Assembly: GCF_057098645.1 (NCBI RefSeq)
Contig: NZ_CM169472.1
Reading direction: 5' to 3' (one strand)
Length of the DNA stretch: 64,000 nucleotides
The notes beneath the pieces are model-generated. The model saw only the letters and a program-made list of their open reading frames with translations, made no database searches and had not been told where the DNA came from. Of the stretch, positions 2,463-30,739 are shown piece after piece. Made by a program: the position numbers and the translations under genes. Within the stretch, counting starts at the first letter, position 1. Every line of letters begins with the position of its first letter.

Positions 2463-4334
2463 TTACAGCGTAAATTCGTTTCCGGGTCCAGTGCCCAGGT
2501 TATTTACTATATAAGCATCTATTCTCTGATCATTAAATCGCCAGCAGTCAATGGCAAGATCCATCAGCAGGCGTTGCCTTGATGTGATGCTTTCCGCAGA
2601 CCAGTCTTGATATTCATATCCATATTTCAGCTTAAAGCGATTTAATGCAGTGTTATCACCAATTGAGTACTGGGAGTGGAGTAATCGAGTCATGATGATT
2701 TCAGAGTTTAAATATTCTGTTTGTTTTTTCAAAAACCAGTCTTCACTCAAATCATTGCAGTTATTGACAGACTGGTTAATTGTACCCTCTAATAATGTTA
2801 CATTACCAAGTTTGTAGAGATAACTTGTTCGATTTACATCAGAGAACTCCCCGTTTTCAGGGGCGTTTCGTACCGTCTGAGGAAGAATATGCTCAATTTG
2901 CATCTGCTGAATAGCCTGCTGGCTCTTTTCCGGAAAACCGCAAAGATGGCGGATATGATTCTCTAATCTACCCAATACATAACGTTGGCGATACTGAGGC
3001 GTAAAATTATAGTCATTAATAATTGAGAATCGTTCTTTAAATTCATCTAAACGCTCCACAACAAAAGGTATAAGTGTTGCTGAAACAACATTTGCAACCT
3101 CTGCTTTCGTTTTCACATCCCGAAGCTTTACAGCCCATTGAGTAAAGCGTTGCTCATATGTCTTCGATTGAATAGCCATTGTATTTGTAAAGAATAAAAA
3201 GCTCTCAAGTTGAGCACCTAAGAAATCCATTACATCATCTGAACAACTAATATCCAATGCCATTAGTAAAACCAAATGCTGACGTGAGCGATATTTATTA
3301 ATATATCCAATGTTACTTACGTTTGGAAAACGGATATTTTCACGCCAGTAGGCTGCTTCATTTGTTGCATTGACCAGGTTAGCGTATCGTTCTGATAATT
3401 TTTCCAATTCTTTGACGAGGACCATAGGGCGTGTCTTATACTGCAACGACAGTTCCCCCTCAGCTGAAATGATCCATTTATATATATCATCTTCACGCAA
3501 AATCCCGTGATGATATCGTGCCATCAGAAAGTAACGTAAAAAACGAAGCGGGTTATCACTTTCGCCGCAAGACTCAAGGTTATTAGTGATGGATTTCCAT
3601 GTTGTCTTTATTGCCGAAAACTGTTCTTCTTTTATCTGACTGAAAATCAAATTTTTAACAAGATCCATAGCATTAAGGCTGGCACCACGCTGATTGATCG
3701 TTTCGAAGATCTTTAATGCGCTACTTAAGTTCTCTGATTCAATGACAACCAGCTCAACTTTTGTTAAAAAAAAGCGAGCGAAGGAGATTAATCCATTCAA
3801 GCTATCTTGCAATTGGTATTTAAGATAATCACGAATGTGATCATACGCGTCAGCCATTTTTTTTACTGAAGCTGTTTCCGCAAAGGTATTGGTTTGCCCT
3901 TCAATTAACCGCGAAATAAATCCTCGACTTTCTTCATATTGAAGATCTAGTCTAATTAGATTTTCCTCACTATTAATATCATAACTAGAGAGCCATTCCT
4001 CAATAGTTTTCAGATATTCCAGCCCTTTTTTGTCAAGTGTATCCAATCTATCTTTTAATAGATCCCGTAAGGCACACATAGTGATGACAATAGTGGTCAA
4101 CCGCTGCTGTCCGTCAATAACATCATGCTTTTCCCCATTCTTTACGATAATAACAGAACCGAGAAAATAACCATTTTGATCTTTCTGCTCTGGTTGGTAT
4201 TCATTGTCTAAATCCATGAGAAACTGTTCAACCTGATCATCAACCTTCCATACATACTCACGTTGATAATCGGGAACTAAAAAATAATAATCGCTTAATT
4301 TTGATATATTTTTTACATCGGCTTCTATTTTCAT
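2463..4334 (-). CDS. DUF262 (ParB-like NTPase) / DUF1524 (HNH-like) fusion protein, GmrSD-like type IV restriction-type nuclease
   Basis: 623-aa ORF; N-terminal DGQQR motif typical of DUF262, C-terminal ...QIEHILPQ... His-Me finger-like motif typical of DUF1524; AT-rich. Confidence 0.65.
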   Translation of the reverse strand: MKIEADVKNISKLSDYYFLVPDYQREYVWKVDDQVEQFLMDLDNEYQPEQKDQNGYFLGSVIIVKNGEKHDVIDGQQRLTTIVITMCALRDLLKDRLDTLDKKGLEYLKTIEEWLSSYDINSEENLIRLDLQYEESRGFISRLIEGQTNTFAETASVKKMADAYDHIRDYLKYQLQDSLNGLISFARFFLTKVELVVIESENLSSALKIFETINQRGASLNAMDLVKNLIFSQIKEEQFSAIKTTWKSITNNLESCGESDNPLRFLRYFLMARYHHGILREDDIYKWIISAEGELSLQYKTRPMVLVKELEKLSERYANLVNATNEAAYWRENIRFPNVSNIGYINKYRSRQHLVLLMALDISCSDDVMDFLGAQLESFLFFTNTMAIQSKTYEQRFTQWAVKLRDVKTKAEVANVVSATLIPFVVERLDEFKERFSIINDYNFTPQYRQRYVLGRLENHIRHLCGFPEKSQQAIQQMQIEHILPQTVRNAPENGEFSDVNRTSYLYKLGNVTLLEGTINQSVNNCNDLSEDWFLKKQTEYLNSEIIMTRLLHSQYSIGDNTALNRFKLKYGYEYQDWSAESITSRQRLLMDLAIDCWRFNDQRIDAYIVNNLGTGPGNEFTL

Positions 4335-4391: not shown

Positions 4392-4901
4392 TCACAAACG
4401 AACAGGAGAGTAGACCCCTTCTACATTACAGCTATCTCCGTCATCAAAAATCAACTCTCCTGCACTATAACCATCCATGGATAAAATAGCCTTTTCATTG
4501 AGAGCCAGACTAAGGCACATTGATGTTTTTATCATATTATCTGTACCATAAATCTCATACCAGTTATCTTCTTTTTTAGAAACCTCTACCTCATACTTTC
4601 CTGAGTCAATATTAACCATGCTAAATACATTATCTACATCACATGAATCCTTGCTATCTGTAAAAATTATTTTTTTATCATAGCCATCAACCCTGAGATA
4701 TGCGTCTTCAGAATAAGCATAAACATAACAATATTTAGTATTAACAAAAGAATCCTTCCCAGTAATTTGATATAAATTACTATCTTTTCTTGTGACATTT
4801 ATTTCCCACGTATTGGCATGAACATAACCTGGAGCCAAAAACAGGGTTAATAAGAACGGTCCAATCTTGGCTTTAAAGTTTCTAACAATTTTGAAAAACA
4901 T
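4392..4901 (-). CDS. Secreted hypothetical protein with internal tandem duplication
   Basis: 169-aa ORF; N-terminal signal peptide (...LLTLFLAPGYVHA); two ~50-aa repeats each ending in a DSCDV/DSCNV motif; no recognisable family. Confidence 0.55.
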   Translation of the reverse strand: MFFKIVRNFKAKIGPFLLTLFLAPGYVHANTWEINVTRKDSNLYQITGKDSFVNTKYCYVYAYSEDAYLRVDGYDKKIIFTDSKDSCDVDNVFSMVNIDSGKYEVEVSKKEDNWYEIYGTDNMIKTSMCLSLALNEKAILSMDGYSAGELIFDDGDSCNVEGVYSPVRL

Positions 4902-4952: not shown

Positions 4953-5708
4953 CTACATATCAGCCAACAACATCCCAGCCATGCCATCCAGCCGTTTCTT
5001 GACCTTTTCCCACCCAGGCATAACCTGCCCCATCAGGCGGTAAAACTCTTCACTGTGGTTGTGCTCAGCAACATGGCATAACTCATGTAGCAAAACATAA
5101 TCGATACATTCTGAGGATGCCTTAACCAGCCATGGATTCAGGGTCAGACAGCCTTTTGCTGAACAGTTGCCCCATTGCGTTTGCATCGCCCGCAGACGTA
5201 TCGGAGGACGCTCACTGACCCAAAGGGTCTGCGGAATCAGTAAATCAAGCCTGCGCTGAAAAACATCTCTGGCACGTTCCCGATACCATTCAGCCAGCAA
5301 GGCTTTAATCTTTTCTGCCGATTTGTGTCTGACAGTCACTTCCAGACGCCCACGCAACATTTTCACTCGTTGCGGCACAGTAGCGTCTTCTGTCACTTTC
5401 AACTGATATTGCTTACCGAGATAATAATGGCTTTCTCCGCTGACATACTGACGCGGAACAATGTGTGTCTGTTGCTCCCTGAAATCACGCAGTTGCTGGT
5501 ATATCCAGCGCCCACGTTTTTTCAGCGCAGACAATACCTCGTGCTCCGGTGTTTCAGGCGGTACAGAGGCCACAACCCGGCAGTCCGGATAAACCTTGAT
5601 GAGCACCCTGCCCTTTACGACCTGACGCGGAACACACTGTACGACGATGACCTCATCACCATAGACAATGCGTAACGCTTTCATTGATGGCGATTCTTTT
5701 TCACTCAT
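4953..5708 (-). CDS. DUF45 / M48-like zinc metallopeptidase (YgjP-like)
   Basis: 251-aa ORF with HELCHVAEHNH (HExxH) motif; start overlaps hsdR stop by 4 bp, implying co-transcription; this family commonly follows hsdR. Confidence 0.7.
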   Translation of the reverse strand: MSEKESPSMKALRIVYGDEVIVVQCVPRQVVKGRVLIKVYPDCRVVASVPPETPEHEVLSALKKRGRWIYQQLRDFREQQTHIVPRQYVSGESHYYLGKQYQLKVTEDATVPQRVKMLRGRLEVTVRHKSAEKIKALLAEWYRERARDVFQRRLDLLIPQTLWVSERPPIRLRAMQTQWGNCSAKGCLTLNPWLVKASSECIDYVLLHELCHVAEHNHSEEFYRLMGQVMPGWEKVKKRLDGMAGMLLADM

Positions 5709-8989: not shown

Positions 8990-9058
8990 CCGGTAATCCT
9001 TCTTGGCTAAGAGGTGAAACTGTATGTCCTTACGGACATACTCAAAATGAACGAAGAC

Positions 9059-10843
9059 TTATGATGAAAAGAACGGCGAGTCCCGATAAAGGCGATTGTA
9101 CTTGACCTGTTCTGTTTCGCCCTTGTTTACATTACCAAATTTCTCCTGATGCGTCGTACAGCAGGAACCACAGGATGCACAAATAAATCGTCCTTCTGAA
9201 CATTTTTCATGCAAATCCCTGGCGTCAATTATTTCGCTGCATTTGTAACCAATACAGTGATTAATGTAATGCCCGATACCAAACTGTTCGCACGAATGAC
9301 TGGCACATTTAAAGACGGTCAGGCGATACGCGGCCTGGAAAGGTTTTTTCACAAATCCTTTCGACTTTGTATCCCAGACGCTGACTTCCACACGAGCATA
9401 TTTCATATCTGGAACCATCAGCACCCCACAACTTCGGCAATGCAAGCGGGAATGTAATTCTCTGATACGATTGAAATACCCAGCCAGTTTAATTGGGAAA
9501 TCCCGCTTAGAAGGTTCGCCTGCAATCAGATAGGTCATGCCATAGTGGGCAAGCCAGTCATAAATAGTGAAGTCGATGTAATCCCGACTGAGGTCGGGTA
9601 GTACCTGCGGATCATGGCAGATTTTCGAACGACAAAGGAATTTTTTCTCTATCGTTCCGTCAGGTTGTTTTGCATTCCAGTGAAATGCCTCACAGGATAA
9701 TTTTAAATTCCGGGAACGAATTTTCAATGAGCTACACTGTGGGAACAATTTGAAAACAGAAGGATGGCTTACCGGGATTTTACCCGACAACACTCCCTGC
9801 CATATCTCATGCAGAATAATACTCAGAACGGACTGTTCATCGTTACGCCCAATCAGCGGTAACAATTTACTCAGAATAAAGTATTCAGGGTCAGAAGAAA
9901 TTTCAGTATTCGACTCAATATCATTAACAAAACTGAAATCTTTCCTGAACATCTTCTGTTTAATCAAATACTTATTGACAAAAGGACTAATCACGGAATG
10001 TTTATAAAATTGCTCTCTCGATGAGAATTTCTGCTGATAGGCATCACGGACAAATGGTTGTATATCCATTTTATTTTTCGTGAAACTACGTCGAACAAAA
10101 TTCTCTATATCATCATGCCGATGTTCAAGAATCCGCTCGCTGCTTATACAATCGTAAAATGCCAGGTAGAGAATAGCACTTATAGATATATGGCTGAGTA
10201 ATTCATTGATGATGTCCGATGTTGAAGCCCCCTGGCAATCCGTAGCCGCAGAACACCTTTTCACCCAAACAGCGAACTGATCAATGTTATTATCGATAAA
10301 TGACGAAGGCATGACTGCAGGAGATATTTGTTGTGCGGTCAAATCATCAAAATTCTTATCAGAGGCGAAAAGTGCAAACTGGTTATCGTAGTTACGTGAT
10401 TTTAAAAATAGCGGCAAGACTTTTGTAGCAGCTATATCACTGGTAACTAACCGAATTATAGCCCTTTCGCCAAAGGACTGAGTGAGAAAATTAATAACGC
10501 AGTCACGATAACGCCAACGAGCGAAATCAACGCCCTCCTCAATAATAGCCCGGAGATATTCAATAAGGAGCTCAGCCGTCTCCTCATCTGTTTTATCAAG
10601 AATGTGAACATTAAAAGCCGTAGGCTTACCATTTTTACCTGTACCTTCCCTGAACAGCACCGGTGCATTGTCTGCGGGTGTATAGTTCCGGCTTATCTCA
10701 TTCTTATGAAAAAACAGCTCATTACCATTCTCTGATAAGAGAAAGCCAAAGTTATTCTCCCGATCCGTTTTGCTGTTGTAGCCTCCGAACCAGAGAACAT
10801 TTCCCATGTACCACCGGGAACGATCCAGATTGTTCACTGCCAT
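9059..10843 (-). CDS. Hypothetical protein: N-terminal cold-shock-like (OB-fold) domain, large unknown middle region, C-terminal Cys-rich zinc-ribbon-like region
   Basis: ORF 9059..10921; start chosen at internal Met (MAVNNL...) to avoid a 56-bp overlap with the upstream gene; N-terminal NNFGFLLSENGNELFFHKNEI resembles the CspA-type GFGFI...VFVH motif; C-terminus has clustered CxxC / CxH / CxxC motifs. Confidence 0.55.
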   Translation of the reverse strand: MAVNNLDRSRWYMGNVLWFGGYNSKTDRENNFGFLLSENGNELFFHKNEISRNYTPADNAPVLFREGTGKNGKPTAFNVHILDKTDEETAELLIEYLRAIIEEGVDFARWRYRDCVINFLTQSFGERAIIRLVTSDIAATKVLPLFLKSRNYDNQFALFASDKNFDDLTAQQISPAVMPSSFIDNNIDQFAVWVKRCSAATDCQGASTSDIINELLSHISISAILYLAFYDCISSERILEHRHDDIENFVRRSFTKNKMDIQPFVRDAYQQKFSSREQFYKHSVISPFVNKYLIKQKMFRKDFSFVNDIESNTEISSDPEYFILSKLLPLIGRNDEQSVLSIILHEIWQGVLSGKIPVSHPSVFKLFPQCSSLKIRSRNLKLSCEAFHWNAKQPDGTIEKKFLCRSKICHDPQVLPDLSRDYIDFTIYDWLAHYGMTYLIAGEPSKRDFPIKLAGYFNRIRELHSRLHCRSCGVLMVPDMKYARVEVSVWDTKSKGFVKKPFQAAYRLTVFKCASHSCEQFGIGHYINHCIGYKCSEIIDARDLHEKCSEGRFICASCGSCCTTHQEKFGNVNKGETEQVKYNRLYRDSPFFSS

Positions 10844-10865
10844 GAGCAAGCCCCCTTCCGCTTTG

Positions 10866-11549
10866 TCAGTGCAGGCAGCACTTTTTAAATTTTTTACCAC
10901 TGCCACACTGACACGGGTCATTACGACCGGGCAGTTTTTCTGCCCCCTTCACGGGAACAGGCCGGGATGATGCCTCTGACATTCTCACCGACAACCAGTG
11001 CTGGTAAAGCGCCAGTGCCGCAGGCTGAATGAGAGTAATACTCTGTTCAAATTGAACAGGTGACATTTTCTCAACCACTGGGAAGTTCTTTTCAATACCA
11101 TGAAGGGCTATCGCCTCCAGCGAGGGACGTAAGGCCTCTGGCAAGGCTGACCAGTCATCCAGAGACCGGCCTTTCATATACCCGAAACACCACTCTTCGA
11201 CGATGGTATATGTCTTCCCCTTCACCTCACGTCCATTGAAAATCGGTTCAAACTGTTCAGGGGCCTCATACAGGCAGCCAGCGATATCGTTCATATGCTG
11301 AAAACACAGCCCCACAAAACGCGTCATCTCTTTTTCAGTGGTCCAGCGAGGGTGGTAATCACCTCGCCCCCAGATAGCACTGAGCCAGGTATTAGGGGAA
11401 ATCGTATTCGGGCCAGAGACAATCGCCGTCAGAAAGCCATCCAGCTCAGAGAAACAGAGCACAGAGTCATCATTGCCGTATTTCATCAACACCTCTTCCA
11501 GCCAGTCGATTTCCCGGTCAATCAGCGGCCCGCTTTTCGTCAGTTTCAT
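10866..11549 (-). CDS. YecA-like UPF0149 / SEC-C motif protein (island-borne paralog of core yecA)
   Basis: 227-aa ORF alignable over its whole length with YecA (1199..1864), roughly half identical by eye; same C-terminal [20 protein letters not shown] motif; start abuts the hsdS stop. Confidence 0.8.
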   Translation of the reverse strand: MKLTKSGPLIDREIDWLEEVLMKYGNDDSVLCFSELDGFLTAIVSGPNTISPNTWLSAIWGRGDYHPRWTTEKEMTRFVGLCFQHMNDIAGCLYEAPEQFEPIFNGREVKGKTYTIVEEWCFGYMKGRSLDDWSALPEALRPSLEAIALHGIEKNFPVVEKMSPVQFEQSITLIQPAALALYQHWLSVRMSEASSRPVPVKGAEKLPGRNDPCQCGSGKKFKKCCLH

Positions 11550-12189
11550 TCGGCAACCGCCTCATCGACCTTAACACGACGTTTGCCAGTCAGTAGCTGT
11601 TGCATCAGGGCTTTTTTCTCGTCTTTCAGGCAGGCGAGTTTTTTCTCCAGCGTGGAGATTTCAGCGTCGGCAGCGGAAAGGACGGCGGCGATTTTTTGTT
11701 GTTCTTTGATATCTAATGGCAACCTAAAGTCTTTCTCTTTAAGTTCTCGCATATGTCTGCTGTAACCTAAATTCGGAATATCTGTATTTGAAAGAAGATA
11801 GTATCCAAGTTTTGGTTCAAGTATTTTGCTAGTTTTTATTACTTGCGTTCCATCAGCACCGGGACAAAACACAAACTCAATCCATTTGACGCATCTTGTA
11901 TGATCGCCAAAAACAATCACAGGCACGTCCGAATAAACCTCTAAATTATTACAGTACCCAGCAATTCGACTTTGCCCTTGATCGATTATAGGGATGGAAC
12001 CTGACTGTAAATAATCGGAAGATTTGACTTGCGCCGATTTTTTATTTGCAACAATGAAAGCATTATCAAACGTTAAATATACCCACTCCCCATTAAACCT
12101 CCCCCCATTCTCATCCAGCAAGCGTTTTTGTCCGGTAAGCAATTGCTGCATCAGGGCTTTTTTCTGTTGCTGGCTGTTGGTGAGAAGCG

Positions 12190-13245
12190 GCTTTGTTGAA
12201 TAAATCAGATTTCGGGTAAGTCTCCCCCGTAGCGGGTTGTGTTTTCAGGCAATACGCACGCTTTCAGGCATACCTGCTTTCGTCATTTTGTTCAGCGCTC
12301 GTACCAGGGCCATAGCCTCCGCAACCTGACCATCGTAGTCACGCAGCGTCAGTGAACCCCCGAACAGCTGTTTTACCCGGTACATCGCCGTTTCCGCTAT
12401 CGAGCGACGGTTGTAATCTGTTGTCCATTTCCACCGCGCATTACTCCCGGTCATTCGCTGATTAGCCACTGCACGGTTACGGTCTGCATATTCACCGGGC
12501 CAGTAGCCCGCACCTTTTCGGGGAGGGATAAGCGCGCTGATTTTCTTACGCCGCAGTTCATCGTGACATAGCCGGGTATCGTAAGCGCCATCGGCGGCGG
12601 CTGACCTGATTTTCCGGTGGGTTTGCCGGATTAACCCGGGGAAGGCCTCTGAGTCCGTAACGTTGTTCAGCGACAGGTCTGCACAGATGATTTCATGTGT
12701 TTTACTGTCAACGGCGAGATGCAGCTTACGCCAGATACGGCGGCGTTCCTGGCCATGCTTTTTGACTTTCCACTCGCCTTCACCGAAGACCTTCAGCCCG
12801 GTGGAATCAATCACCAGATGTGCGATTTCACCCCGGGTGGGCGTTTTGAAACTGACATTAACCGACTTTGCCCGCCTGCTGACACAGCTGTAATCCGGGC
12901 AGCGTAGCGGAACGTTCATCAGAGAAAAAATGGAATCAATAAAGCCCTGCGCAGCGCGCAGGGTCAGCCTGAATACGCGTTTAATGACCAGCACAGTCGT
13001 GATGGCAAGGTCAGAATAGCGCTGAGGTCTGCCTCGTGAAGAAGGTGTTGCTGACTCATACCAGGCCTGAATAGCTTCATCATCCAGCCAGAAAGTTATG
13101 GAGCCACGGTTGATGAGGGCTTTATTGTAGGTGGGCCAGTTGGTGATTTTGAACTTTTGCTTTGCCACGGAACGGTCTGCGTTGTCGGGAAGATGCGTGA
13201 TCTGATCCTTCAACTCAGCAAAAGTTCGATTTATTCAACAAAGCC
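12190..13245 (-). mobile_element. IS5-family (IS903-group) insertion sequence, copy 1
   Basis: ~1057 bp; terminal inverted repeats GGCTTTGTTGAATAAATC at both ends; flanked by 9-bp target-site duplication GTGAGAAGC (12181..12189 and 13246..13254). Confidence 0.85.
12245..13213 (-). CDS. IS903-group (IS5 family) transposase
   Basis: 322-aa ORF; DDE transposase with ...LIDSTGLKVFGEGEWKVKKHG...WRKLHLAVD... region; identical protein encoded at 28742..29710. Confidence 0.88.
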   Translation of the reverse strand: MKDQITHLPDNADRSVAKQKFKITNWPTYNKALINRGSITFWLDDEAIQAWYESATPSSRGRPQRYSDLAITTVLVIKRVFRLTLRAAQGFIDSIFSLMNVPLRCPDYSCVSRRAKSVNVSFKTPTRGEIAHLVIDSTGLKVFGEGEWKVKKHGQERRRIWRKLHLAVDSKTHEIICADLSLNNVTDSEAFPGLIRQTHRKIRSAAADGAYDTRLCHDELRRKKISALIPPRKGAGYWPGEYADRNRAVANQRMTGSNARWKWTTDYNRRSIAETAMYRVKQLFGGSLTLRDYDGQVAEAMALVRALNKMTKAGMPESVRIA

Positions 13246-13815
13246 GTGAGAAGCTTTTCCGTCACCGAAATCGCCTCATCCCAGGTTGACAGAATTTTAA
13301 CGATTCTCTTTTGTTCAGACAGTGGGGGGATATTAAATGGCCACTTAAACCAACTATCTAACTTAAAAATCATTTTCTCTATGTGCACACCAATGCTAGA
13401 GTGGAAGCAGGTTTGCTGGAAATATAGAGACTCCGATAGAAATTCCATATAAGGAAGATAAAAACCGGACTTCCCTGTAAGCACACAATATTCATTCGAT
13501 ACAATTGAGCCAGAAAGTTCTTTAGGTACAAGACCGCAAGCACCGTGCACAATTTGTCGTTTTGATATGAGAAAGTCGCCTTCTTTAATATAGAATTGAC
13601 TTTTTACGGAGATATCTTTTCCTTTAAGATGCTCACGTCTTATTACGCCACCTCTGGAGCGCTTTACTGTAACTAAGTCATACTCTTGATTATCTTGTAT
13701 ATATGCCTTTCTTGCCTCTATATTTAAGCACTTTTCTAATGATAACTTTTGCCATCCTGTAGGTAGCATTCCAAGGATCGGTTTTCCAGCTTTAACGCTC
13801 ACTGGGTAAAGCGAA

Positions 13816-15339
13816 TCACGAGCCATAACCCAACTCCTTCAAATACCCTGCCATCTCAACTTCCAGCTTCGCCAGTTCCACCTTCAGTTGCTCACGCTCT
13901 GCTCGCACCGCCACCAGGTCAATCTCATCCTCTTCTTCAAAGGTATCGACATAGCGCGGAATATTGAGGTTGTAATCGTTGTCCTGAATTTCCTTCAGGC
14001 TGGCAAGATAGGCGTATTTCTCGACGTTATCGCCATCACGGTAGGTCTTGACGATTTTCTTAATGTTTTCTTCGCTAAGCTGGTTCTGGTTTTTACCTGC
14101 CTTGAATTCACGGCTGGCATCGATAAACAGCACCTTGTCATCAACTTTCTACTTTTTGAAAATCAGAATCGCAGCCGGAATCCCCGTACCGTAGAACAGT
14201 TTTTCCGGCAGACCAATTACCGCATCCAGCAAATTTTCGTCGATCAGTTTCTGGCGAATTTTACCTTCGCTGGAGCCACGGAAAAGCACACCGTGTGGCA
14301 CAACTACGCCCATACGGCCAGTTCCCGGTTTCAGGGTTTCGATCATATGCGAGATAAAAGCGTAATCTCCTTTAGTCTTCGGCGGTACACCGCGACGAAA
14401 ACGGCCAAACTTATCGTTCTCGGCCTCGTCATGGCCCCACTTATCGAGGCTGAACGGTGGGTTAGCGGTCACGATATCAAACAGCATCAGGTCGCCATTT
14501 TTATCGAGCAGCTTCGGGTTACGAATGGTATCGCCCCACTCGATTTTATGGTTGTCTTCCCCGTGCAGGAACATATTCATTTTCGCCAGCGACCACGTAG
14601 AACCGATCGCTTCCTGACCGAACAAGGCATAGTTACGACTATCATGCCCGGAGACAATTTTACGCCCACACTTCATCAATAATGAACCGGAACCACAGGC
14701 TGGATCGCAGATGGTATCACCCGGTTGCGGATCGAGCAGTTCTGCAATCAGGTCCGAAACTTCCGGCGGGGTATAGAACTCCCCGGCTTTCTGCCCACCG
14801 CTGGCGGCAAAGTTTTTGATCAGGTATTCGTAAGCATTGCCGATAACGTCCAGCGTACCGACACGACTCGGCTTCAGGTTGAGATCTTCACCGGCGAAGT
14901 CTTCCAGTAGCTGACGCAGTATGGTGTTTTTCTGTTTTTCTTCGCCAAGACGATCGGTGTTAAACGAAATATCCTGGAACACGCTTTTCCCGGCATCTTT
15001 CAGTTTGGTTCCGTTGGCTTCTTCGATTGCATGCAGAGCCTGATCGATACGCTCACCGTTACCCAGCTCATGGCGGCGTTCGTACAGCGCATAAAAGCTG
15101 GCACTTTTTGGCAGTACAAAACGCTCGTTGGCCATCATCGCTTCAATCAGTTCCGGCGCATCGCCATACTGTTCTTTGTATTCGTCATAGTGATCCTGCC
15201 AGACATCTGAAATGTACTTGAGGAACAGCATGGTAAGGATAAAGTCTTTATAGGTATCAGCACTGATGGTGCCACGGAACGTATCACACGCGGCCCACAG
15301 GGCTTTGTTGATCGTGTCCTGACTGATTTTGTCGTTCAT
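13816..15339 (-). pseudogene. hsdM: Type I R-M methyltransferase subunit hsdM with in-frame amber stop
   Basis: ORFs 14149..15339 (396 aa, N6-adenine MTase motifs incl. ...IVTANPPFS...) and 13816..14133 (105 aa) are in the same frame, separated by a TAG at 14149..14151. Confidence 0.75.
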
Positions 15340-18126: not shown

Positions 18127-18269
18127 TTTCTTAATATAATGGCGACATGGAATTGTGTTGCCATTATATCCGAATCAGAATTTTTCACCTGATGAACTGT
18201 GAAAACTGAGACTGGCAGACAGTAATCTCGCACCGTATTTTTTCTGTGTTATTTTACAGGAGAAATACG

Positions 18270-19400
18270 ATGCCCATTCTGGATCTGCGTTTCAGCAACA
18301 AATCACTTCACCAACTTCCCCATCCCCTCACGGGCTGTCAGGAATACCGTGATATTCACTGCCAAAACCTGCGTGCTCTGGTGTATCCCAATCGGATCAC
18401 GCTGGCCTTTCGTGCCACTATAAACAATCAGCGTATATATGAACCCCTGGGTCAGTTCCCTCAGCTCTGCGTTGAGGATGCCCGTCAGCATGTGATGAAA
18501 CTGCTTGCTGATAAAAATCGTCTTGCGGTTCAGTCCCGTCGATTCACTGTGGAACAGGCCATCAATGACCTGTGGCTACCGGATTTGCAGTTGTATAAAA
18601 AGAGTCCTCAGTCAGAGTTGTCAAAACTCAACCTCTACGTTCGCCCGTTCTGGGGCAAGCGGCAACTTCGCGACATCACGGCAGGAGAACTAGAACAATA
18701 TGCTGCTGGCTTACGGGAAAAATTACGTCCGTCAACAGTAAACCGTATCCTCGCAATATTGTCCAAAATATGCTCTCTGGCAGTACGTGCTGGATGGATC
18801 ACGCATTCCCCGATGTCACATGTCCGCTATCTGAAAGAAAATAACATTCGCTATCGCACACTATCAGCGACAGAAATCCCGCGCTTTATTGACGCGGCAA
18901 CAGCGCTGCAAACACCGGCAGCTGATTCTATATTGCTTGCTCTTTATACGGGGATGCGTATTGGTGAGGTATGTACCCTGAAATGGGAGTACTGGCACCT
19001 GGATATGCATCAACTCATACTGCCTGATACAAAGTCCGGACACCCTTTCACCTGCCCACTTGCACCTCCAGCCATTGCAGTTGTCCAGTGCCAGCAGGAC
19101 CTGATGCTCAGCAAAACTTACATTTTTCCGCGACTAACCGACAATGCCCGCCCTCTGGCATATCCGCGTGCAACCTTTGCCCGTATTTGCCGGGATGCCG
19201 ACATTGATAACCTGCGGATGCATGACCTGCGCCGTACCTTTGCCACCCGGGTACTACAGGCGACCGGGGATATTGCAATCGCTTCCCATCTGCTAAATCA
19301 CCATTCACTCACGGCGACCCGTCGCTACGCTTTTCACAATGCAGCGACATCACACGCAGTGGTTTCTCAGGTCATTGAAAGTTATGACACGAAAAAATGA
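18270..19400 (+). CDS. Tyrosine recombinase / phage-type integrase
   Basis: 376 aa from the ATG at 18270, which is preceded by AGGAG; C-terminal catalytic region ...HDLRRTFATRVLQ...HLLNHHSLTATRRYAF (R..H..R..Y). Confidence 0.85.
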   Translation: MPILDLRFSNKSLHQLPHPLTGCQEYRDIHCQNLRALVYPNRITLAFRATINNQRIYEPLGQFPQLCVEDARQHVMKLLADKNRLAVQSRRFTVEQAINDLWLPDLQLYKKSPQSELSKLNLYVRPFWGKRQLRDITAGELEQYAAGLREKLRPSTVNRILAILSKICSLAVRAGWITHSPMSHVRYLKENNIRYRTLSATEIPRFIDAATALQTPAADSILLALYTGMRIGEVCTLKWEYWHLDMHQLILPDTKSGHPFTCPLAPPAIAVVQCQQDLMLSKTYIFPRLTDNARPLAYPRATFARICRDADIDNLRMHDLRRTFATRVLQATGDIAIASHLLNHHSLTATRRYAFHNAATSHAVVSQVIESYDTKK

Positions 19401-19786: not shown

Positions 19787-20113
19787 ATGACTAAAAATAC
19801 TCGTTTTTCCCCTGAAGTCCGTCAACGGGCAGTCCGTATGGTTCTGGAAAGTCAGGGCGAATATGACTCACAATGGGCGACAATTTGTTCCATTGCTCCA
19901 AAGATTGGCTGTACGCCGGAGACTCTGCGTGTCTGGGTTCGCCAGCATGAGCGGGATACCGGGGGCGGTGATGGAGGGCTCACCACCGCTGAACGTCAGC
20001 GTCTGAAAGAGCTGGAGCGTGAAAATCGTGAACTGCGCCGCAGTAACGATATCCTTCGCCAGGCTTCCGCTTATTTTGCGAAGGCGGAGTTCGACCGCCT
20101 CTGGAAAAAATGA
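19787..20113 (+). CDS. IS3-family transposase OrfA (HTH)
   Basis: 108-aa [22 protein letters not shown]..., typical IS3-family OrfA with leucine-zipper-like C-terminus. Confidence 0.85.
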
Positions 20114-21000
20114 TGCCACTGCTGGATAAGCTGCGTGAGCAGTACGGGGTCGGACCGCTATGCAGCGAACTGCATATTGCCCCGTCAACGTATTACCACT
20201 GTCAGCAACAGCGACATCATCCGGATAAACGCAGTGCCCGTGCGCAGCGCGATGACTGGCTGAAGAAAGAGATACAGCGCGTATACGATGAAAATCACAA
20301 GGTATACGGTGTGCGTAAAGTCTGGCGTCAGTTGTTACGGGAAGGTATCAGAGTGGCCAGATGCACTGTGGCACGTCTCATGGCGGTTATGGGACTTGCC
20401 GGTGTTCTCCGGGGTAAAAAGGTCCGTACGACCATCAGCCGGAAAGCCGTTGCCGCAGGCGACCGCGTAAACCGTCAGTTCGTGGCAGAACGACCTGACC
20501 AGCTGTGGGTGGCTGATTTTACTTACGTCAGCACATGGCAGGGCTTCGTCTATGTGGCGTTCATCATTGATGTGTTTGCCGGATACATTGTGGGGTGGCG
20601 GGTCTCATCGTCCATGGAGACGACATTCGTGCTGGATGCACTGGAGCAGGCGTTATGGGCCCGTCGACCGTCCGGCACGGTCCATCACAGTGATAAAGGT
20701 TCTCAGTATGTATCGCTGGCCTACACACAGCGGCTTAAGGAAGCCGGATTACTGGCATCAACAGGAAGTACAGGCGACTCGTATGACAACGCGATGGCGG
20801 AGAGCATCAATGGTCTTTACAAAGCGGAGGTAATACACCGTAAGAGCTGGAAAAACCGTGCAGAAGTGGAACTGGCCACACTCACGTGGGTGGACTGGTA
20901 TAACAATCGACGATTGCTGGAAAGGCTGGGCCATACTCCTCCGGCAGAAGCAGAAAAAGCTTATTATGCTTCCATCGGAAACGATGATCTGGCAGCCTGA
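20110..21000 (+). CDS. IS3-family transposase OrfB (DDE integrase-like catalytic domain)
   Basis: 296-aa ORF with DDE motif region (...WVADFTYV...HHSDKGSQY...[10 protein letters not shown]...). Confidence 0.85.
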
Positions 21001-27974: not shown

Positions 27975-28523
27975 TTATGCTGAAAGATAAAAAAAGTTAT
28001 TCCTGTAAAGAGGTTGCTGAATGGCTGACGTCAGAAGGCTATTCAGTAACATGTCAAAAAGCACCTGCTGGATCTCCCGGGCCCGAAGGTCGCAGTAACG
28101 TATCTTCCCCAGACGAGGTTCAATGTATTGCGTGAAACGCTGAACATCCTTATCCCAGGACTTTTTATGGCGTTTGATGAACGGAACATAGGTCTGGTGA
28201 AAAAACTCACTAAGTGTTGGCATCGCACGATAATTATCGCGTTCTGCTTTAGGGTCATTTCCCAGTGCAATCGCCTCCTTGTGACGACGAGCTATCTGAC
28301 GGGCTGTCCCCACATCGATTTCAGGGAATCTGCCAATACTGATACTTTTTTTGGTACCGTGGAATGTGTAGCGCAGGAGGAAACGTTTGTTACCCGTTCG
28401 ACCTGAGAGACATTTGAGGCCTATGACCTCGGTATCTGATACCTCAAGCTCTGTAGATCGGGTATCTGTGTTTGCCGGAAGGGCTTTGATGGATGAATTG
28501 GTGAATCGGAAGGATTTTTGCAT
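27975..28523 (-). pseudogene. Truncated P4-type integrase (N-terminal arm-binding domain only)
   Basis: ORF 27975..28553; MQKSFRFTNSSIKALP...GTARQIARRHKEAIALGNDP resembles the DUF4102 arm-binding N-terminus of P4-family integrases; no catalytic domain; 3' part overlaps the piPolB 3' end on the opposite strand. Confidence 0.5.
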
Positions 28524-28709: not shown

Positions 28710-29766
28710 GGCTTTGTTGAATAAATCGAACTTTTGCTGAGTTGAAGGATCAGATCACGCATCTTCCCGACAACGCAGACCGTTCCGTGGCAAAGCAAAA
28801 GTTCAAAATCACCAACTGGCCCACCTACAATAAAGCCCTCATCAACCGTGGCTCCATAACTTTCTGGCTGGATGATGAAGCTATTCAGGCCTGGTATGAG
28901 TCAGCAACACCTTCTTCACGAGGCAGACCTCAGCGCTATTCTGACCTTGCCATCACGACTGTGCTGGTCATTAAACGCGTATTCAGGCTGACCCTGCGCG
29001 CTGCGCAGGGCTTTATTGATTCCATTTTTTCTCTGATGAACGTTCCGCTACGCTGCCCGGATTACAGCTGTGTCAGCAGGCGGGCAAAGTCGGTTAATGT
29101 CAGTTTCAAAACGCCCACCCGGGGTGAAATCGCACATCTGGTGATTGATTCCACCGGGCTGAAGGTCTTCGGTGAAGGCGAGTGGAAAGTCAAAAAGCAT
29201 GGCCAGGAACGCCGCCGTATCTGGCGTAAGCTGCATCTCGCCGTTGACAGTAAAACACATGAAATCATCTGTGCAGACCTGTCGCTGAACAACGTTACGG
29301 ACTCAGAGGCCTTCCCCGGGTTAATCCGGCAAACCCACCGGAAAATCAGGTCAGCCGCCGCCGATGGCGCTTACGATACCCGGCTATGTCACGATGAACT
29401 GCGGCGTAAGAAAATCAGCGCGCTTATCCCTCCCCGAAAAGGTGCGGGCTACTGGCCCGGTGAATATGCAGACCGTAACCGTGCAGTGGCTAATCAGCGA
29501 ATGACCGGGAGTAATGCGCGGTGGAAATGGACAACAGATTACAACCGTCGCTCGATAGCGGAAACGGCGATGTACCGGGTAAAACAGCTGTTCGGGGGTT
29601 CACTGACGCTGCGTGACTACGATGGTCAGGTTGCGGAGGCTATGGCCCTGGTACGAGCGCTGAACAAAATGACGAAAGCAGGTATGCCTGAAAGCGTGCG
29701 TATTGCCTGAAAACACAACCCGCTACGGGGGAGACTTACCCGAAATCTGATTTATTCAACAAAGCC
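28710..29766 (+). mobile_element. IS5-family (IS903-group) insertion sequence, copy 2
   Basis: Same ends as copy 1 (GGCTTTGTTGAATAAATC inverted repeats), inverted relative to copy 1; flanked by 9-bp target duplication CCGTGCCGT (28701..28709 and 29767..29775). Confidence 0.85.
28742..29710 (+). CDS. IS903-group (IS5 family) transposase
   Basis: 322-aa ORF identical in sequence to the one at 12245..13213. Confidence 0.88.
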   Translation: MKDQITHLPDNADRSVAKQKFKITNWPTYNKALINRGSITFWLDDEAIQAWYESATPSSRGRPQRYSDLAITTVLVIKRVFRLTLRAAQGFIDSIFSLMNVPLRCPDYSCVSRRAKSVNVSFKTPTRGEIAHLVIDSTGLKVFGEGEWKVKKHGQERRRIWRKLHLAVDSKTHEIICADLSLNNVTDSEAFPGLIRQTHRKIRSAAADGAYDTRLCHDELRRKKISALIPPRKGAGYWPGEYADRNRAVANQRMTGSNARWKWTTDYNRRSIAETAMYRVKQLFGGSLTLRDYDGQVAEAMALVRALNKMTKAGMPESVRIA

Positions 29767-30578: not shown

Positions 30579-30708
30579 CAGGCACAAAAAAACCACCCGG
30601 AGGTGGTTTCACGACACTGCTTATTGCTTTGATTTTATTCTTATCTTTCCCATGGTACCCGGAGCGGGACTTGAACCCGCACAGCGCGAACGCCGAGGGA
30701 TTTTAAAT
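30579..30708. repeat. Right direct repeat (attR): leuZ 3' end plus downstream terminator region
   Basis: 130 bp matching 1986..2115 with one mismatch; overlaps the intact tRNA-Leu 3' 56 nt. Confidence 0.85.
30586..30612 (-). terminator. Rho-independent terminator of the glyW-cysT-leuZ tRNA operon
   Basis: Minus-strand hairpin aaccacc-tccg-ggtggtt followed by a T7 run immediately 3' of leuZ. Confidence 0.7.
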
Positions 30709-30739
30709 CCCTTGTGTCTACCGATTCCACCATCCGGGC
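30653..30739 (-). tRNA. leuZ: tRNA-Leu (anticodon UAA)
   Basis: 87-nt sequence GCCCGGATGGTGGAATCGGTAG...CTCCGGGTACCA on the minus strand; anticodon loop TTTAAAA; long variable arm; encoded CCA. Confidence 0.9.

Follow-up and report, generated by a model that had tools for sequence, protein, structure and literature searches.

Genes embedded as cargo in restriction-modification (R-M) or BREX operons are already known. In the EcoprrI locus, which is arranged hsdM-hsdS-prrC-hsdR, PrrC lies between the specificity and restriction genes of a type I R-M system and its expected role is a back-up immunity linked to R-M; type IV restriction enzymes of the BrxU/GmrSD type are embedded in BREX operons, the BrxU-type enzymes being DUF262/GmrSD nucleases. 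The stretch of DNA analyzed here, hereafter the window, comprises 64,000 nucleotides of contig NZ_CM169472.1 (RefSeq assembly GCF_057098645.1) and carries two genes in the hsdS/hsdR junction of a type I R-M operon. The first encodes a UPF0149/SEC-C protein and is a paralogue of yecA, and the second encodes a 594-aa protein with an N-terminal cold-shock domain (CSD) and a Cys-rich C-terminal module with candidate zinc sites, referred to as CSD-Zn. An earlier note on this DNA had taken these genes for a candidate defence module and had pointed out that embedded defence genes such as PrrC and RloC are known from type I R-M operons. The hsdS/hsdR slot is occupied by PrrC in EcoprrI. It is also occupied by DarTG2 in the RRDM island of enteropathogenic Escherichia coli (EPEC), arranged rptR-hsdM-hsdS-darT-darG-hsdR-M48, where this junction was described as a probable hotspot of recombination that takes up defence genes (PMC12255303).

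The open reading frames (ORFs) of the window confirmed that two genes lie on the - strand between hsdS and hsdR at the positions listed in Table 1, and Pfam matches and the Cys count bore out the domain calls made in the earlier note, i.e., UPF0149/SEC-C for the first protein and a cold-shock N-terminus with a Cys-rich C-terminus for the second. The proposal that the two genes form a two-gene cassette was not supported; a lack of co-occurrence in other genomes had been named beforehand as an outcome that would refute it, and the pair was found together in a single lineage only, which essentially refutes the pairing. The two genes are independent of each other, the insertion of the CSD-Zn gene has exact boundaries, and the CSD-Zn family has a defence-embedded distribution, being associated repeatedly and specifically with methylation-based defence operons. 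The best explanation as a whole, to which we give about an even chance, is that two functionally independent genes occupy the hsdS/hsdR junction of a mobile type I R-M operon. This operon would follow the scheme hsdM, hsdS, yecA paralogue, [cargo], hsdR and M48, with CSD-Zn as a self-contained cargo that would have been placed precisely between the stop of the yecA paralogue and the start of hsdR.

The CSD-Zn gene stands out as a separate cassette that was inserted into the operon. When operons with and without this gene were compared by blastn, homology was found to end exactly at the stop codon of the yecA paralogue and to resume 18 nt into hsdR, and the GC content of the CSD-Zn gene is 42% as compared to 49-51% in the flanking genes. 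A complete CSD-Zn gene was found in 198 E. coli genomes, whereas the yecA paralogue was found directly behind hsdS, with an overlapping start, in 417. In about 215 E. coli genomes, which carry alleles of the yecA paralogue that are 80-90% identical, hsdR directly follows the yecA paralogue and there is no CSD-Zn gene. The same arrangement (hsdM, hsdS, yecA paralogue, hsdR and M48, without CSD-Zn) was found in loci L007, L008 and L053; the last of these, a metagenome contig, carries the full operon with an HsdR of 1094 aa and a yecA paralogue of 71% identity. The two genes co-occur only where CSD-Zn is at least 91% identical, which corresponds to one horizontally spreading operon lineage in the Enterobacteriaceae (Escherichia, Klebsiella, Citrobacter, Enterobacter, Buttiauxella and Franconibacter). 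There is no YecA-like gene within 10 kb of any CSD-Zn homologue with 59% identity or less, and these homologues have no hsd neighbour of the window type, apart from cases in which another R-M operon is found. The two genes are thus, with high probability, not an obligate pair.

CSD-Zn is labelled "cold-shock protein" in databases, and its N-terminus is a cold-shock domain (Pfam PF00313) with a five-stranded oligonucleotide/oligosaccharide-binding (OB) fold, in which the RNP1 and RNP2 aromatic residues are conserved. In the AlphaFold2 model (mean predicted local distance difference test score, 86), the OB fold is followed by a helical region (residues 85-366) and a beta-rich C-terminal module (residues 367-567). 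This module has 15 Cys residues between positions 370 and 562, including CxxC motifs at 469/472, 555/558 and 558/561, and up to four candidate zinc sites (370/384/404/409; 469/472/513/518; 530/535/555/558; and 548/561/562/H565); Y526, D540 and R542 are its invariant non-Cys residues. The protein combines an intact, conserved nucleic-acid-binding face on the cold-shock domain with a conserved, novel Cys-rich module. Compared to orthologues in five other genera, the ratio of non-synonymous to synonymous substitution rates (dN/dS) was 0.11-0.21 for CSD-Zn and 0.08-0.20 for the yecA paralogue; because this range (0.08-0.21) indicates purifying selection, both are real genes and not chance ORFs.

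An exhaustive HMMER scan identified 422 representative clusters of CSD-Zn relatives at E <=0.001, with lengths of 350-1280 aa, and the C-terminal module is kept from Proteobacteria to Bacteroidota and Firmicutes. Among 50 sampled distant relatives, 24 had a cold-shock domain match (15 at E <=0.001), and a Pfam scan of these relatives found mainly cold-shock domains, with HARP in three and no known enzyme domain. Beyond the cold-shock domain, no match to CSD-Zn was found in PADLOC, NCBIfam, PHROGs or Pfam; the earlier note's statement that no named system was recognized therefore holds for the 594-aa protein, but not for the SEC-C gene, which is listed under a weak label, PADLOC candidate PDC-S12. 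The C-terminal module had no relative in Pfam, the PDB or the annotated AlphaFold models, and no significant profile match to known zinc-ribbon families (Pfam DZR, Zn_Ribbon_TF, Rpr2 and others). A weak similarity to trigger factor in a PDB profile search (E 0.002) was dropped, as a fold search did not support it. No CSD-Zn relatives were found in 50,697 phage genomes or in IMG/VR, and literature searches with the protein accessions and for CSD together with BREX yielded nothing relevant.

Loci carrying CSD-Zn homologues were taken from a species-representative genome set, from metagenomes and from individual look-ups, and were de-replicated to 54 clusters, the neighbours of which were screened. 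At least 11 of the 54 clusters lie in or adjoin BREX: CSD-Zn is located between pglX and pglZ-brxL in three (L023, L121 and L124), directly after pglX in five that are represented by shorter contigs (L087, L096, L107, L110 and L119), and directly after brxL in another three (L005, L019 and L095). Type I R-M contexts were found for at least 5 of the 54, i.e., the window lineage, L077, L078, L083 and L045. In L077, CSD-Zn lies between an AriAB-like ATPase and PDC-S20, followed by an HsdR with 57% identity to that of the window and by M48, and in L045 the order is an hsdS fragment, RhuM, CSD-Zn and PD-(D/E)XK. Known or candidate defence genes that are co-embedded with CSD-Zn include HEC-05, LeoA/LeoBC (Eleos), the AriAB-like ATPase, PDC-S20 and PDC-S69, and further copies are found in the variable region of an SXT/R391-type integrative and conjugative element (ICE), in integrase islands, and beside Mrr and an NERD-kinase-helicase gene. 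The clusters with BREX and R-M contexts do not group together in a neighbour-joining tree but are distributed among at least 8 clades, indicating that the embedding occurred many times.

Because the family is found repeatedly in BREX, in type I R-M operons and in defence islands, CSD-Zn appears to be a stand-alone, second-line anti-phage protein, and we consider it slightly more probable than the reverse that it is a defence gene. The cold-shock domain would bind single-stranded phage DNA or RNA, and the multi-zinc C-terminal module, with Y526, D540 and R542, would deliver the effect through sequestration or through an undescribed metal-dependent activity; alternatively, this module might sense a phage protein. 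Any specific mechanism of this kind is put forward with considerable reserve. Somewhat less doubtful, but still clearly tentative, is the broader proposal that CSD-Zn could represent a new, widespread single-gene immune protein with an undescribed multi-zinc domain that specifically backs up methylation-based defences. It would have been recruited to the methylase/effector junctions of BREX and type I R-M operons and would act on single-stranded phage nucleic acid, or sense anti-restriction proteins (DNA mimics), when these defences are evaded; separately, and as part of the same tentative proposal, the yecA paralogue could be the first case in which a relative of a ribosome- and SecB-binding chaperone has become a dedicated subunit, or an assembly factor, of a restriction enzyme.

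Several observations weigh against the explanation favoured here. Neither gene has a known phenotype, and since no catalytic domain is recognizable in CSD-Zn, an effector activity of this protein is pure inference. The neighbour panel consisted of BLAST searches with few query proteins, so that the counts for the 54 clusters are minimal, and this denominator includes many contigs too short to be of use. Some homologues are located among apparently housekeeping genes in Aeromonas, Erwinia and Pararhodobacter. In addition, E. coli alleles of the yecA paralogue with about 94% or higher nucleotide identity to the window copy seem to be always accompanied by the CSD-Zn gene; simple linkage explains this association, as the block that diverges in the operons without CSD-Zn (blastn) also covers the 3' end of hsdS, and co-adaptation could explain it too.

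The alternative that survives best, even though it is unlikely, is that CSD-Zn is an accessory of type I R-M and BREX, either as a guard that responds when the host system is blocked by a DNA mimic such as Ocr or by another inhibitor, or as a post-transcriptional regulator of the downstream effector genes (hsdR or pglZ-brxL). The slot of CSD-Zn between methylase/specificity genes and effector genes is strikingly specific (hsdS/hsdR here and pglX/pglZ in L023, L121 and L124), 16 clusters are tied to BREX or type I R-M, and cold-shock proteins are RNA chaperones and antiterminators according to NCBIfam names. Moreover, Ocr is an inhibitor of type I R-M as well as of BREX, and an anti-restriction peptide activates PrrC, whose gene holds the corresponding position in EcoprrI; a guard role is attractive because the same kind of anti-restriction proteins block both host systems. 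However, many copies of CSD-Zn have neither system within 5-10 kb (the ICE hotspot, the integrase islands and solitary chromosomal copies), and in BREX loci the gene is also found after brxL, outside the operon core. CSD-Zn is intact in the window despite dead hsdM and hsdS genes as well, but the loss of these genes is recent, so that this says little.

There is little probability that the yecA paralogue and CSD-Zn constitute one two-component defence or abortive-infection system, in which a nucleic-acid binder would act with a metal-binding partner. The two genes are on the same strand, 22 nt apart, in one tightly packed operon, and the E. coli alleles of the yecA paralogue nearest to the window copy are those with CSD-Zn; furthermore, the yecA paralogue diverges more than hsdR and hsdM between operons with and without CSD-Zn, with synonymous divergence (dS) of up to 0.84. 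On the other hand, the divergent block reaches the 3' end of hsdS, and recombination of the specificity region fits this pattern better than co-adaptation does. The yecA paralogue is found alone in Providencia as well as in L053 and the approximately 215 E. coli genomes, the neighbours of CSD-Zn include no YecA-like gene in about 50 diverged clusters, and the co-occurrence is confined to one lineage in which CSD-Zn has hardly diverged.

Equally improbable is a non-immune role of CSD-Zn as a stress RNA or single-stranded DNA chaperone, or as a maintenance or establishment factor of mobile elements that shares islands with defence genes. Such a role would agree with the database name, with the lack of a recognizable toxic or enzymatic domain and with the copies among ordinary genes; in Aeromonas sobria (L017), for example, the homologue lies between purA-like, YgiQ and RND-pump genes, and further solitary copies were found in Erwinia (L015 and L042) and Pararhodobacter (L018). 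An identical module is also carried by 132 large plasmids, which are mostly conjugative and mostly from Klebsiella, but these plasmid copies represent the same hsd operon. Residence in shared islands leaves unexplained the insertion of CSD-Zn into the same kind of junction in BREX and type I operons, in many unrelated clades and beside defence cargo.

The yecA paralogue matches UPF0149 (1.7e-29) and the SecA-type metal-binding motif SEC-C (1.8e-07) in Pfam and, over its full length, the NCBIfam YecA equivalog NF007704 with 350.5 bits (cut-off, 149), and has the N-terminal UPF0149 domain and the C-terminal CxC...CC(L/H)H metal-binding motif of the YecA family. Over its full length it is 58% identical to native YecA, the gene for which lies 9 kb away, and the metal-binding tails of the two proteins are nearly the same. 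The "equivalog" label implies YecA function for the paralogue, which is doubtful given its different genomic role. In the protein database, the paralogue belongs to a clade of 68-100% identity that is set apart from native YecA proteins (59% or less). It was also found on large conjugative Klebsiella plasmids, directly behind hsdS, and in Providencia (L051 and L052), behind an hsdS remnant; in every context examined it is located directly 3' of hsdS or of a remnant of this gene. The yecA paralogue is thus a stable, fixed fourth gene of this family of type I R-M operons. The metal-binding tail of AscA/YecA mediates its binding to SecB and to ribosomes, and AscA/YecA keeps other proteins from aggregating (bioRxiv 10.1101/2020.07.21.215244); the gene in the hsd operon would be a captured paralogue of this holdase, translationally coupled to hsdS, and it may serve as a chaperone or as an assembly or timing factor for the R-M complex and not as a defence effector. 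A literature search for YecA together with type I R-M found nothing relevant.

PDC-S12 (model PDLC04917) matches the yecA paralogue at 8.5e-98 (325 bits), and enterobacterial pipolins have been described as often carrying PDC-S12, along with type I R-M, as cargo that was exchanged recently (PMC11551731). With native yecA (1199-1864), however, this model reaches a higher score, 1.7e-110 (366 bits), and the label therefore cannot tell the paralogue embedded in the R-M operon from the chaperone gene. The location of native yecA at the border of a tRNA-Leu integration hotspot may explain how a model of YecA came to be listed among phage defence candidates. Even though the PDC-S12 match and stable purifying selection inside a defence operon speak for it, it is improbable that the yecA paralogue is itself the defence gene, e.g., by holding or mis-targeting phage proteins at the ribosome, with CSD-Zn as a bystander, as the model prefers the housekeeping YecA, no phenotype was reported in the literature searched on PDC-S12, and the gene behaves as an operon component behind hsdS and not as autonomous cargo.

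The region is 100% identical in E. coli strains such as RM9872, and the window represents an E. coli O145:H28-type chromosome. The operon is located in a 29-kb pipolin island (1865-30652), which is flanked by native yecA (1199-1864, - strand) and tRNA-Leu (30653-30739), a site that corresponds to the pipolin integration site given in PMC11551731. The island carries a gene for a primer-independent PolB (piPolB), ending at 28135, a tyrosine recombinase gene (18246-19400) and many insertion sequence (IS) copies, among them IS3, IS21, IS2 and IS5-family copies. The genes hsdM, hsdS, yecA paralogue, CSD-Zn, hsdR and M48 form a single tightly packed operon on the - strand. hsdM and hsdS overlap by 11 nt, and hsdS and the yecA paralogue by 4 nt (ATGA, 11546-11549); these are followed by a 22-nt gap with a GGAAGGGGG ribosome-binding site before CSD-Zn, a 69-nt gap before hsdR, and a 4-nt overlap between hsdR and M48.

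Table 1. Coordinates of the features of the operon in the window
Feature	Position	Strand	Evidence or remarks
yecA paralogue (UPF0149 + SEC-C)	10866..11549	-	Pfam, NCBIfam YecA, 58% to native YecA
CSD-Zn gene, 594 aa	9059..10843	-	Inserted cargo gene, uncharacterised family
Cold-shock (OB-fold) domain, residues 14-81	10601..10804	-	RNP1-like FGF 32-34, RNP2-like FFH 44-46
All-helical middle, residues 85-366	9746..10591	-	Length and sequence vary across family
C-terminal Cys-rich module, residues 367-567	9143..9745	-	15 Cys
hsdS, whole, interrupted	11546-13826	-	
hsdS, C-terminal half	11546..12151	-	97.5% identity to same part of intact HsdS of L002; subunit S in RefSeq relatives
IS5-family (IS903-like) element	12189..13245	-	NCBIfam IS5 transposase, 357 bits; 34-nt inverted ends; 9-bp duplication GTGAGAAGC
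hsdS, N-terminal half	13215..13826	-	100% identity to L001 HsdS
hsdM pseudogene	13816..15339	-	TIGR00497 match; in-frame TAG 14149-14151
hsdR, intact, 1094 aa	5705..8989	-	TIGR00348, 455 bits; PADLOC REase_I, 1366 bits
M48/YgjP-like metallopeptidase, last gene of operon	4953..5708	-	RefSeq annotation; Pfam YgjP-like in orthologous L053 operon

The host R-M system is dead in this genome, where it has been inactivated twice. By translation, hsdM has a stop at codon 397 of 508, and RefSeq flags an "internal stop" in H1; hsdS is interrupted by the IS5-family element with its target duplication. Of the three genes required for a type I R-M system, only hsdR is intact in the window, whereas the operon is intact in the relatives L002, L007, L008, L047 and L053; the Klebsiella plasmid pBSI128_vf_res is one carrier of an intact operon. 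The earlier note had described the start of the SEC-C gene as meeting the hsdS stop; the overlap is as described, but because the IS element splits hsdS, the ORF that abuts the SEC-C gene represents only the C-terminal half. A second, identical copy of the transposase is present at 28742-29710.

The CSD-Zn gene is reduced to its final 210-270 nt, next to hsdR, in about 66 E. coli genomes in addition to L009 (E. coli PK6); in L009, IS1 and IS3 copies, a TIR-domain gene and a tet(B) block now stand in place of the upstream stretch. These remnants indicate that the hsdS/hsdR junction undergoes frequent IS-mediated turnover. By comparison, the common laboratory strain E. coli ATCC 8739 (L132) carries a complete locus of hsdM, hsdS (frameshifted), yecA paralogue, CSD-Zn and hsdR, in which the yecA paralogue has 99.9% nucleotide identity to that of the window.

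The spacer between CSD-Zn and hsdR contains a hairpin with a perfectly paired stem of 9 bp and a loop of 4 nt (9015-9036, - strand), which reads TATGTCCGT/AAGG/ACGGACATA on the + strand and AGTATGTCCGTAAGGACATACAG on the - strand. This hairpin, which has no T-run behind it and arrived together with the CSD-Zn cassette, may have a role in the processing or the stability of RNA. An Rfam scan of positions 1-32000 found only tRNAs and an IS pseudoknot (an ALIL frameshift pseudoknot at 20068-20184) and no RNA family in the two-gene region, and promoter and terminator scans found nothing informative above shuffled expectation. On the 3' side of the M48 gene, a DUF262/GmrSD-like protein (2463-4334, - strand; PADLOC HEC-06 match, 1.3e-79) and a 169-aa protein that matches no family (4392-4901, - strand) are encoded. 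Both the HEC-06-like gene and the gene for the 169-aa protein also trail the operon in Franconibacter and Citrobacter (L012 and L013), and these genes probably represent an additional defence module of the island.

Among the neighbours of CSD-Zn homologues, a protein of about 540 aa is encoded on the same strand, 100-280 bp away, in the metagenome loci L102, L112, L124, L127 and L130, and in L124 both genes are located together inside the BREX operon. This protein, which is absent from the window, had no Pfam match and resembles PDC-M72B only weakly, in its C-terminal part; within one subclade it may act as a partner of CSD-Zn. A conserved small ORF beside CSD-Zn homologues was considered and rejected, as the two candidates (L005 and L046) are mutually unrelated.

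Genes nested in R-M and BREX operons, such as PrrC, DarTG and BrxU, have repeatedly revealed new immune mechanisms and new counter-measures of phages. CSD-Zn is a clean new candidate of this kind; it crosses phyla, is found in the same type of junction in two methylation-based systems and is absent from current defence catalogues, and neither the family, nor its domain, nor its association with BREX and type I R-M was described in the libraries and literature searched. Its zinc-rich domain is conserved and has no structural or functional precedent. CSD-Zn is common in clinically relevant backgrounds, i.e., the 198 E. coli genomes and 132 plasmids, and the ATCC 8739 locus provides a convenient experimental source. 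The yecA paralogue points to a possible chaperone requirement in one family of type I restriction enzymes. Moreover, the lack of discrimination by PDC-S12 affects published defence-system counts, which may take in the core gene yecA, so that such calls should be treated with caution.

With regard to known systems, CSD-Zn resembles PrrC and RloC in being an extra gene in the hsdS/hsdR junction of a type I R-M operon. These are ABC-ATPase/anticodon-nuclease proteins, whereas CSD-Zn has no ATPase or nuclease domain; neither protein encoded in the junction matched PrrC or RloC in PADLOC, NCBIfam or Pfam, and no P-loop fold was found in the models. The RRDM island shares with the window the same skeleton, cargo between hsdS and hsdR and a terminal M48 peptidase. 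Its cargo, however, is the DarTG2 toxin-antitoxin pair, while the slot in the window also holds the resident yecA paralogue, and an RptR-like ORF was looked for upstream of hsdM in the window and none was found. CSD-Zn relatives share with the genes embedded in BREX a location in exactly the pglX/pglZ junction (L023, L121 and L124), and in L124 the DUF262-type HEC-05 adjoins; CSD-Zn differs from BrxU in that it has no DUF262/GmrSD domain.

A cold-shock domain within an anti-phage system is also a feature of the retron type V (Se72) effector and of components of CoCoNuTs. The retron type V effector works with a reverse transcriptase and a non-coding RNA. The PADLOC CSD_V and NCBIfam retron_eff_Se72 models, with a length of about 62-64 residues, match distant CSD-Zn relatives, but CSD_V did not match the window protein at E up to 1; no reverse transcriptase was found in the RefSeq annotation of the matching locus, and no retron RNA in the Rfam scan. 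CoCoNuTs, the CSD-bearing components of which have been described (PMC11090510), are McrBC-type systems. Finally, the yecA paralogue shares with YecA/AscA the full two-domain architecture and the closely similar sequence and metal-binding tail described above; by contrast with native YecA, it forms a separate paralogue clade that is carried on plasmids and pipolins, always in a type I R-M operon behind hsdS.

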